Virus genome (UHGV): UHGV-0351028
Direction: 5' to 3' (one strand)
Length of the DNA: 10,108 nucleotides
Source of the DNA: a virus
The translations under genes and the position numbers were made by a program. Positions 1,484 through 2,344 of the stretch are shown in pieces (the first letter of the stretch is position 1; every line of letters starts with the position of its first letter). The notes under the pieces are model-generated. The model did no database searches and was not told the origin of the DNA. It worked only from the letters and a program-made list of their open reading frames with translations.

Positions 1484-2344
1484 TCACCTGTCGAAAAACA
1501 CGTAGCCAGTTTTCGATACGGTGATTGCGGATGATGGTTTGGATTGTGGTTGAATGGTTTCTGGCTTTTCGTCGTTCCAGCGTTGACCGTTCAGGTAGCT
1601 CGATGGTAACAACCTGTCGAATCCGAACTGCTTACCATTCCTGCATGCGATGTCTTCTGCCAGCATCGTGGCAAACTCGCTTGCCGTACCCCTGGTAGTT
1701 TTACGCCATTCCCTGAACTGTGTTCTGAATGCCGAAGCTGCGTTTTTCTTCCCGGCTTTCCGCATGCCTGCACACCAGAATATTTCCTCGAATGCCTTGT
1801 CGGTTTCTTCGTGACGGTCAGATGATTTTTCACACTCCGTCCGAACACTTTCGGACATAGTGTTTTTATTATTTCTTTTTTCTTTTGTAATAGTTTCTTT
1901 TGTGTGTCCCTGTTTTGGTGACAGCGCTGTCACCGTTTTGGTGACACTTTTTGTCACCAATGCAGTGACATTATCACCAGAGTAGTGACACCCTTCGATT
2001 TGCCATTCCTCGATGTTCTTGTTAGGCCCGATTTGCTGGCCTTCGCGAAGGATTACCTTCATCGCGATAAGCTCATTCTTGGCCTTGTTTACCTTCTGTC
2101 TTGGCAGCCTGGTAATTTGAGCTAACTGACTATCAGAGATGCGATCCATCTTTTTACCGTATCCGTATGTTTTACGGCATATGGCGTGGGCAACCTTACT
2201 CTGATTTTTTGTTAAATCTGCGCCGATAAGCTCTTCATACAGGGCATTTGCAAGACGGGTATAACCATCTTCAACTTCTGCCACACGACGCTCCACAGGC
2301 CGTTGTGAAGGCCTTAAATGTGTTACGGTTGCAAGATTACTCAT
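1484..2344 (-). CDS. Replication initiator, lambda O-like N-terminal domain with a non-lambda C-terminal domain
   Basis: N-terminus ([31 protein letters not shown]...[24 protein letters not shown]...GPNKNIEEW) aligns with my recollection of lambda O. The C-terminal third is unrelated to lambda O. SD AGGAGA lies upstream. Iterons sit inside the gene. Confidence 0.85.
1861..1990. repeat. Putative replication origin: four ~19-bp iterons (TGTCACC-N6-GGTGACA type) plus an adjacent AT-rich tract
   Basis: Direct repeats of an internally palindromic unit at about 1905-1923, 1928-1946, 1952-1970 and 1972-1990 with 20-24 bp periodicity. AT-rich run at 1861-1904. Located in the linker-coding part of the O-like gene, as in lambda ori. 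Confidence 0.7.

Follow-up and report, generated by a model that had tools for sequence, protein, structure and literature searches.

Where would replication start in a lambdoid prophage whose initiator gene resembles lambda O over its first part only? This question is raised by the UHGV virus genome UHGV-0351028, of which one stretch of 10,108 nucleotides, called the window below, was analysed at its full length. A reading made from the letters alone (the sequence-only reading) had noticed four tandem repeats and an AT-rich stretch inside an O-like gene, and had proposed them as a candidate phage origin. Elements of the lambda-ori kind have been familiar since 1979. In lambda, O dimers bind to four iterons, each an inverted repeat of 18-19 bp, which together with an AT-rich tract of about 38-40 bp make up the origin, all of it within gene O (PMC5043065; PMC7466680; PMC3349717; PMC8022706). 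Then, could the repeats in the window be an origin of this kind, what would distinguish it from that of lambda, and would this copy still work? The positions of the features that bear on these questions are listed in Table 1.

The repeat array inside the O-like gene

The window contains the early region of a lambdoid prophage, in which Pfam recognizes Cro, CII and an O-family protein on the minus strand. The O-like protein matches the family Phage_rep_O (PF04492) over aa 20-114 with E=1.1e-37, and it shares 49% identity with lambda O over aa 1-157, while no similarity could be found past aa 157. By sequence, the gene and lambda O are homologous. The pR-like promoter on the same strand is followed by cro, cII and O in this order, and transcription from it would cross the putative origin, as far as the layout tells.

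Table 1. Coordinates of the putative origin, its parts and the neighbouring features in the window.
Feature	Positions	Strand	Basis and remarks
Primase/helicase remnant (ES18 gp61 / mEp043 gp55 type), aa 1-256 of 626	119-897	-	tblastn
NUMOD4/HNH endonuclease	882-1376		0.5-kb insertion relative to mEp043, directly after the primase/helicase start codon
O-like replication initiator, 286 aa	1484-2344	-	ORF and Pfam Phage_rep_O; holds the putative origin at the boundary of the N- and C-terminal domains
O C-terminal domain, ES18 gp59 type	1484-1860	-	96.8% identical to the ES18 gp59 C-domain
Inverted repeat past the AT-rich tract, 14-nt arms	1832-1845 and 1850-1863		repeat search; arms 86% complementary
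AT-rich tract, putative DNA unwinding element, 44 bp	1861-1904	-	GC content, AT skew and likeness to lambda
Iteron 4, TGTCACCAAAACAGGGACA	1905-1923		pattern scan; aligns with lambda iteron 4
Iteron 3, TGTCACCAAAACGGTGACA, perfect 7+7 inverted repeat	1928-1946		pattern scan; aligns with lambda iteron 3
Iteron 2, TGTCACTGCATTGGTGACA, both arms perfect	1952-1970		pattern scan; aligns with lambda iteron 2
Iteron 1, TGTCACTACTCTGGTGATA (O strand), imperfect right arm	1972-1990		pattern scan; aligns with lambda iteron 1
Predicted N-terminal origin-binding domain, aa 1-118	1991-2344	-	AlphaFold2 model and class-invariant helix motif
CII	2516-2812	-	Pfam
Cro	2950-3150	-	Pfam
pR-like promoter TTGACT-17-GATAAT	3175-3203	-	consensus scan only; upstream of cro-cII-O
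CI-type repressor	3251-3964	+	early region

With the pattern TGTCAC-N7-GTGACA, four units of 19 bp were identified inside the O-like gene, each with no more than one mismatch. Read on the O strand, they follow each other as GGG TGTCACTACTCTGGTGATA A TGTCACTGCATTGGTGACA AAAAG TGTCACCAAAACGGTGACA GCGC TGTCACCAAAACAGGGACA CACAAAAGAAACTATTACAAAAGAAAAAAGAAATAATAAAAACAC, which gives a start-to-start spacing of 20, 24 and 23 bp, or about two helical turns. In iteron 4, the right arm is imperfect; it reads AGGGACA, much like its counterpart in lambda iteron 4, and this form is kept in nearly all loci of the class described below. When up to two mismatches were allowed, the scan of the whole window returned the four clustered units and one stray match with two mismatches at position 765. 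The chance expectation for the pattern is 0.34 matches per window, and at least five matches occurred in none of 200 shuffles. It should be noted that the array was not reported by Tandem Repeats Finder, because the spacing of the units is irregular (20/24/23), but it was found by both the repeat search and the pattern scan.

The four inverted-repeat units of about 19 bp and the AT-rich tract, placed by the sequence-only reading at 1861-1990, are therefore found there by the pattern scan and the GC content, with the sequence as that reading had described it. Its definition of the unit, of the GTGACA/TGTCAC type, needs to be narrowed: the units are inverted repeats as it had claimed, but which of the inverted repeats constitutes the unit was ambiguous. 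If the array is read in the phase GGTGACA-N-TGTCACC, only three units are obtained; their spacers measure 1, 5 and 4 bp, they do not align with the lambda iterons, and this phase was rejected. The consistent phase is TGTCAC...GTGACA, which is always 19 bp long and aligns with the annotated lambda iterons.

The AT-rich tract contains 8 G/C among its 44 bases (18%). For the 40-nt window 1860-1899, the GC content is 0.175, compared with about 0.45-0.55 in the surroundings, and the AT skew is strong, the O-sense strand being A-rich with the motif ACAAAAGAAA...ACAAAAGAAA. The tract lies downstream of the iterons on the minus strand, on the side towards which O is translated, as had been read from the letters. 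A motif of the form ACAAAAGAnA-N(4-9)-CAAAAnA immediately follows the last iteron in 33 of 35 loci, and it does so in all the iteron classes.

Conservation of the iterons and the predicted recognition helix

If the repeats belong to an origin, they should be expected wherever the same N-terminal domain occurs, and the sequence-only reading had named their loss from such phages as the result that would speak against it. A scan of one genome per bacterial species yielded 27 prophage loci. In the 25 prophage loci of the same N-domain class, which come from more than 20 genera of Enterobacterales, the repeats are kept without exception. The genera include Shimwellia, Citrobacter, Pantoea, Serratia, Xenorhabdus, Photorhabdus, Providencia, Rahnella, Erwinia, Tatumella and Arsenophonus. 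Every locus whose N-domain is 66-100% identical to that of the window has three to four units at the same position, and about eight are present in an Arsenophonus locus. One apparent counter-example, the locus L035 of Serratia symbiotica, has the same iterons with only 39% N-domain identity; it turned out to belong to the class after all, as a pseudogene with a frameshift.

The conservation is concentrated in the arms. Among the 17 loci in the ungapped 20/24/23 register, the mean majority fraction of the arm columns is 0.97, and 39 of the 48 columns are invariant, compared with 0.77 for the iteron centres, 0.77 for the spacers and 0.77 for the 45 nt of N-domain coding sequence upstream. The iterons encode aa 119-147 of the O-like protein, and iterons 1-4 are read in frames 0, 2, 2 and 1, where they encode C-H, V-T, V-T and L-S-P, respectively. 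Since the units lie in three reading frames, the constraint would act on the DNA rather than on a conserved peptide.

Proteins of the O type differ as a group in the specificity of origin binding (PMC8022706; PMC7466680), and members of the O family carry their own iterons (PMC8022706). Accordingly, do the arms change with the N-domain? Six other N-domain classes were compared, every non-cognate class being represented by one or a few members, and each has different arms together with a different predicted recognition helix. The arms are TCCCTC..GAGGGA in the class of lambda and ES18, TTTACC..GGTAAA in that of P22, TTAGCC..GGCTAA in the HK97-type class of mEp213 and an Erwinia dacicola prophage, TTACCY..RGGTAA in the PhiR26_1 class, and TGTTACC..GGTAACA in the class of phiEt88, which has the closest N-domain from another class (59.5% identity). 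The arms thus track the N-domain class, in agreement with the earlier suggestion that the iterons match a divergent O specificity. As for a possible identity of the PhiR26_1 class with phi80, the best 15 matches listed are other Escherichia phages, with 149 further records; the interpretation of the array does not depend on this point.

In the protein alignment, a helix segment of 14 residues is invariant in all members of the TGTCAC class, even at an overall identity of 63-72%. The same segment reads LPVKRCNEAKLELV in lambda, MAPTKCSTAKNELI in P22, IHHTHVCAAKRQLI in mEp213, ILPHKCSAAKSVLV in PhiR26_1 and ISRSKANIAKNQLI in phiEt88; the predicted recognition helix of lambda is VKRCNEAKLELV, and that of the window differs from it. 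An AlphaFold2 model of moderate confidence, based on an alignment of 32 sequences, has a pLDDT of 77.5 overall and of 87-96 over aa 41-60 and 71-110, and its elements come in the order of a helix at aa 46-59, a short strand, helices at aa 71-78 and 82-94, and a hairpin at aa 98-107. The model obtained from the single sequence was unusable (pLDDT 48.6). The N-domain is thus predicted to fold as a winged helix whose recognition helix would span about aa 82-94, and the class-specific segment is assigned to this third helix because the model places it there. The top Foldseek matches in the PDB are winged-helix domains of CRP/GlxR and MarR/SlyA/RovA, with weak E-values of 4e-3 to 4e-2; these are dimeric regulators that bind palindromes. 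No O-family structure was found in the PDB by sequence search with the protein or with the profile. In the light of the model, the helix at aa 82-94 may be the element that reads the iteron arms.

Module exchange and the state of this copy

The relatives of the O gene found by megablast fall into three patterns. The gene is matched over its full length at about 99% in mEp043 (99.3% DNA identity), Sf101, SEN22 and vB_EcoP-720R6. The PhiR12 phages match the 5' 473 nt only, while ES18, epsilon34, g341c, several Stx phages and others match the 3' part only, beginning at nt 428 or at nt 476-477. In mEp043, Sf101, SEN22, vB_EcoP-720R6 and the PhiR12 phages, the O N-domain and the iterons are identical to those of the window or nearly so (about 99%), which makes theirs in effect the same origin. 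Among these, mEp043, Sf101, SEN22 and the PhiR12 phages are isolated, viable phages, and they carry the origin at about 99% identity.

The partial matches are mosaics. In PhiR12_1, the N-domain and iterons of the window type run into the right-hand sequence of lambda, AAAAGATTATTCGTC..., which continues with a lambda-type C-domain, P and ren. The opposite combination is found in ES18, as well as in epsilon34 and g341c, whose right half is as in the window and consists of the distal AT-rich tract, the inverted repeat, the O C-domain and a primase/helicase of the gp61 type. Unlike the window, ES18 has a lambda-type N-domain and lambda-type iterons TCCCTC...GAGGGA; the point of exchange lies in iteron 4 and the AT-rich tract, and the ES18 record annotates a rep_origin 'similar to lambda ori'. 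The mosaic junctions with both PhiR12_1 and ES18 fall in the AT-rich tract. The inverted repeat at 1832-1863 belongs to the right-hand module of the ES18 type, and the same sequence stands after the AT-rich tract in ES18 and in the loci L009-L012.

At all the loci, the type of the C-domain matches the partner encoded downstream: a gene for a gp61-like primase/helicase stands behind C-domains of the ES18 type, P behind those of the lambda type, and a gene for a DnaB-like helicase behind those of the P22 gp18 type. The co-occurrence of the window's C-domain type with a downstream gp61-like gene suggests that the C-domain would contact the phage primase/helicase. The TGTCAC class has been found with all three of these modules of C-domain and helicase partner. 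As judged from these mosaics, two modules can be exchanged separately, one made up of the N-domain and its iterons and the other of the C-domain and its helicase partner, and the joint between them is the conserved AT-rich tract.

What, then, is the state of the partner gene in this copy? Positions 1-118 of the window are the end of an IS3-family element, which has more than 23,000 occurrences in E. coli genomes and cuts the primase/helicase gene at position 118. By tblastn, aa 1-256 of mEp043 gp55 correspond to window positions 885-118 with 97.7% identity; the remnant also has a weak Pfam match to Toprim_2, and its RefSeq name is 'toprim domain-containing protein'. The junction at the left end of the window was intact in none of 5,426 complete E. 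coli genomes. In addition, the 3' end of the inserted HNH gene provides a new ATG at position 897 for the downstream ORF, and this HNH arrangement is common to five complete E. coli genomes. Downstream of O, therefore, a partner of the ES18 gp61-like type is present, but the HNH insertion precedes it and the IS element interrupts it after aa 256. In the window, neither the O ORF nor any of the four iterons is damaged. Without a partner provided in trans, this replicon is probably unable to sustain itself, and because the partner primase/helicase gene has been cut by the IS element, the activity of this copy of the origin is doubtful and it may be idle.

Alternative explanations and comparison with known origins

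Based on the above comparisons, it is highly probable that the array and the AT-rich tract constitute the replication origin of a lambdoid prophage, which would be a homologue of lambda ori with a distinct initiator/iteron specificity. If the biochemistry of lambda can be carried over, dimers of the O-like protein would bind each iteron through the winged-helix N-domain, and the bound array, bent or wrapped into an 'O-some', would destabilise the AT-rich tract at 1861-1904 on supercoiled DNA. Transcription from pR through gene O could aid the opening of this tract, as in lambda. The C-domain would then bring in the replicative helicase, which here would be the phage's own primase/helicase of the ES18 gp61 type rather than lambda P with the host DnaB.

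However, an origin by descent could be a silent relic in this particular prophage, with the helicase/primase lost and with iterons that merely titrate O or serve with a partner provided in trans by a co-resident phage. We regard this as a real possibility, although with a chance clearly below even. It would fit with the match to mEp043 gp55 that stops at aa 256 of 626, where the end of the IS3-family element follows, and with the count of 0 intact left-end junctions among the 5,426 complete E. coli genomes. On the other hand, the O ORF and the iterons are not only intact but also about 99% identical to those of viable phages, and therefore any decay would be recent. Moreover, the window ends inside the IS element, and the remainder of the gene may lie beyond it; a split gene or supply in trans is possible. 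The relic explanation is about activity rather than identity, and it is compatible with the element being a lambda-type origin.

Other explanations would deny the identity itself. For example, the repeats might only encode a peptide linker (VT..VTK..VTKTVT) between the two domains and have no role at the DNA level. The region is translated and the peptide does have short repeats, but the units are in three frames and encode different residues, the arm nucleotides are much more conserved than the adjacent coding DNA (0.97 vs. 0.77), and the number of units varies from three to about eight among the relatives, which changes the length of the linker; this explanation is thus very improbable. Hardly any weight can be given, either, to the idea that another dimeric winged-helix regulator, for example the host CRP or a phage repressor or Cro, uses these sites as its operators. 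The arms contain GTGA/TCAC like the half-sites of CRP, and the best fold matches of the model are DNA-binding domains of the CRP family. The consensus spacer of CRP sites is N6, whereas the abutting palindromes in the array are GTGA-N8/9-TCAC. In addition, the immunity operators are found about 1.2 kb from the array, in the interval that separates cI from cro, and elsewhere in the window the motif has one match only, at chance level. The arms also co-vary with the initiator N-domain and not with the immunity region, as mEp043, Sf101 and the window have different repressors and the same iterons. The inverted repeats could also be imagined as hairpins of the O mRNA or as antisense terminators: for the minus-strand RNA of 1895-2000, the folding energy is -42.3 kcal/mol (z = -6.2), and a consensus scan flags plus-strand terminator sites at 1916-1935 and 1928-1946. 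But strong folding is to be expected of any array of inverted repeats, and the flagged T-runs are the iteron centres (GTTTTG). Since the arms are invariant, there is no compensatory change to back an RNA structure, and the homologous repeats of lambda are established O-binding sites (PMC5043065; PMC7466680). A role as RNA structures is, consequently, scarcely to be expected.

Of the 5,426 complete E. coli genomes, 175 contain the lambda-type origin that we favour, and their annotation shows no more at this place than a gene for a 'replication protein'. Over the O gene, the full feature table of the mEp043 record contains CDS features only and no rep_origin, whereas the ES18 and P22 records have one; for Sf101, SEN22 and the other relatives, only CDS names are listed under the match, with no rep_origin among them. 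The Sf101 paper makes no mention of iterons or of an origin of replication. No description of the TGTCAC iteron class was found in the literature on these phages, on lambdoid iterons or on the literal iteron strings, a coverage that does not extend to the 1979-1981 papers on the origins of phi80 and phage 82. The class may be identical to the phage 82 origin and hence already described. The kind of element is textbook, and what may be new is the version of the iteron sequence. We consider it slightly less than an even bet that the TGTCAC-N7-GTGACA iterons and their recognition helix represent an undescribed initiator/origin specificity class, spread over more than 20 enterobacterial genera and combining the geometry of lambda with other arms.

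If that is true, the class would be useful for the code of O-iteron recognition, and it would show the AT-rich tract as the recombination joint between the modules of origin recognition and helicase recruitment. In any case, the few initiator/iteron pairs that could reveal how O-family initiators recognize their sites are increased by one, and the loci offer a clean natural illustration of how origin recognition and helicase recruitment are swapped independently at the AT-rich tract. The finding also places an unannotated origin in a family of common prophages of E. coli, Shigella and Salmonella. The understanding of lambdoid replication is unchanged by it.

How does the putative origin compare with those already known? 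With the iteron origins of plasmids (the Rep proteins of P1, R6K, pSC101 and RK2), it shares the logic of repeated initiator sites beside an AT-rich unwinding element (PMC5043065). In plasmids, however, the iterons are direct repeats to which Rep binds as a monomer, and they are found outside the rep gene (PMC5043065), whereas the units in the window are inverted repeats inside the initiator gene. An origin of the plasmid type (Rep/RepA/pi) was therefore rejected, as the protein matches Phage_rep_O and no plasmid Rep family. The origins of P22 gene 18, of HK97-type phages and of Stx phages have the same architecture as that of the window, namely iterons inside an O-family gene and then an AT-rich tract of the ACAAAAGA type. 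The arms in P22 and mEp213 differ from TGTCAC..GTGACA as given above, and there the C-domain is paired with a DnaB-like helicase; in the Stx phages, six iterons of the lambda type are present.

There remains lambda ori itself. Its four iterons are annotated in NC_001416 (at 39034, 39054, 39078 and 39101), and the units of the window align with them one to one and column for column, with an identical start-to-start spacing of 20, 24 and 23 bp. The iteron centre CAAAAC is common to both, and the AT-rich core of lambda, CACAAAAGACACTATTACAAAAGAAAAAAG, is nearly identical to that of the window, CACAAAAGAAACTATTACAAAAGAAAAAAG. In both phages, the element occupies the boundary of the two domains within the O gene, which belongs to a pR-cro-cII-O operon. 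The arms differ (TCCCTC/GAGGGA in lambda, TGTCAC/GTGACA in the window), and the C-terminal domains are unrelated, with P as the next gene in lambda but a primase/helicase gene in the type of the window. The alignment, with its same spacing and other arms, thus bears out the view that the layout of lambda ori is copied here with different iteron sequences. With the geometry of lambda and different arms, the pair would therefore be, if the class is a true one, a natural orthogonal partner to lambda O/ori.

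Iteron units and the start of the O-like gene

The 19-bp iterons retain position-specific peculiarities across genera, as seen for units 1 and 4 of the window (1972-1990 and 1905-1923) and for the compared loci L010-L031. The right arm of unit 1 reads GTGATA or GTGTCA, rather than GTGACA, while that of unit 4 reads AGGGACA, which is close to the AGGGGGA right arm of lambda iteron 4. These peculiarities suggest that the four units are non-equivalent, and that the last half-site of the array is part of the shared AT-rich module. In the contig of an Arsenophonus endosymbiont (L032), the array has grown to about 8 units. 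In Serratia symbiotica, a frameshifted pseudogene of the same N-domain class, with the same iterons, lies in locus L035 (1440-2100).

In mEp043, PhiR12_1 and P22, the start of O is overlapped by a small DUF2740 / P22 orf48-like ORF (L001 3862-4008). The window probably has this overlap too, at 2345-2515. The O-like gene also contains, in its final 30 codons, a 19-nt tandem repeat (1.9 copies, 84% match) at 1523-1560, namely GATTGCGGATGATGGTTTG.

Interruptions of the primase/helicase gene

The ES18-gp61-like primase/helicase gene is interrupted by a NUMOD4/HNH_3 gene, inserted at a point that precisely separates the ribosome-binding site/ATG from about codon 3. The inserted gene reuses the original start codon, and the downstream ORF has a new ATG at 897, with a 16-nt overlap with the 3' end of the inserted gene. 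The insertion, which looks like a homing-endonuclease cassette, is absent from mEp043 but was found in five complete E. coli genomes.

The same primase/helicase gene is cut after aa 256 of 626 by an IS3-family element, whose end includes TGAACCGCCCCGGGAATCC (reverse complement of 100-118). Sequences matching this element occur at more than 23,000 sites in E. coli genomes. The replicon of this prophage is probably defective.

Other elements and their counterparts in known phages

Additional features identified in the window
Feature	Position	Strand	Remark
End of IS3-family insertion sequence	1-118		
Free-standing NUMOD4/HNH_3 endonuclease gene	882-1376	-	
Strong terminator-like hairpin	2540-2567	+	12-bp stem, then T-run
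Lambda_thermo (cIII thermoregulator element)	6937-6995	+	Rfam match, 88.5 bits (gathering score 50)

The terminator-like hairpin is antisense to cII and lies inside its 3' part. Its position is that of the oop terminator in lambda and P22, and the equivalent site is annotated in the P22 record.
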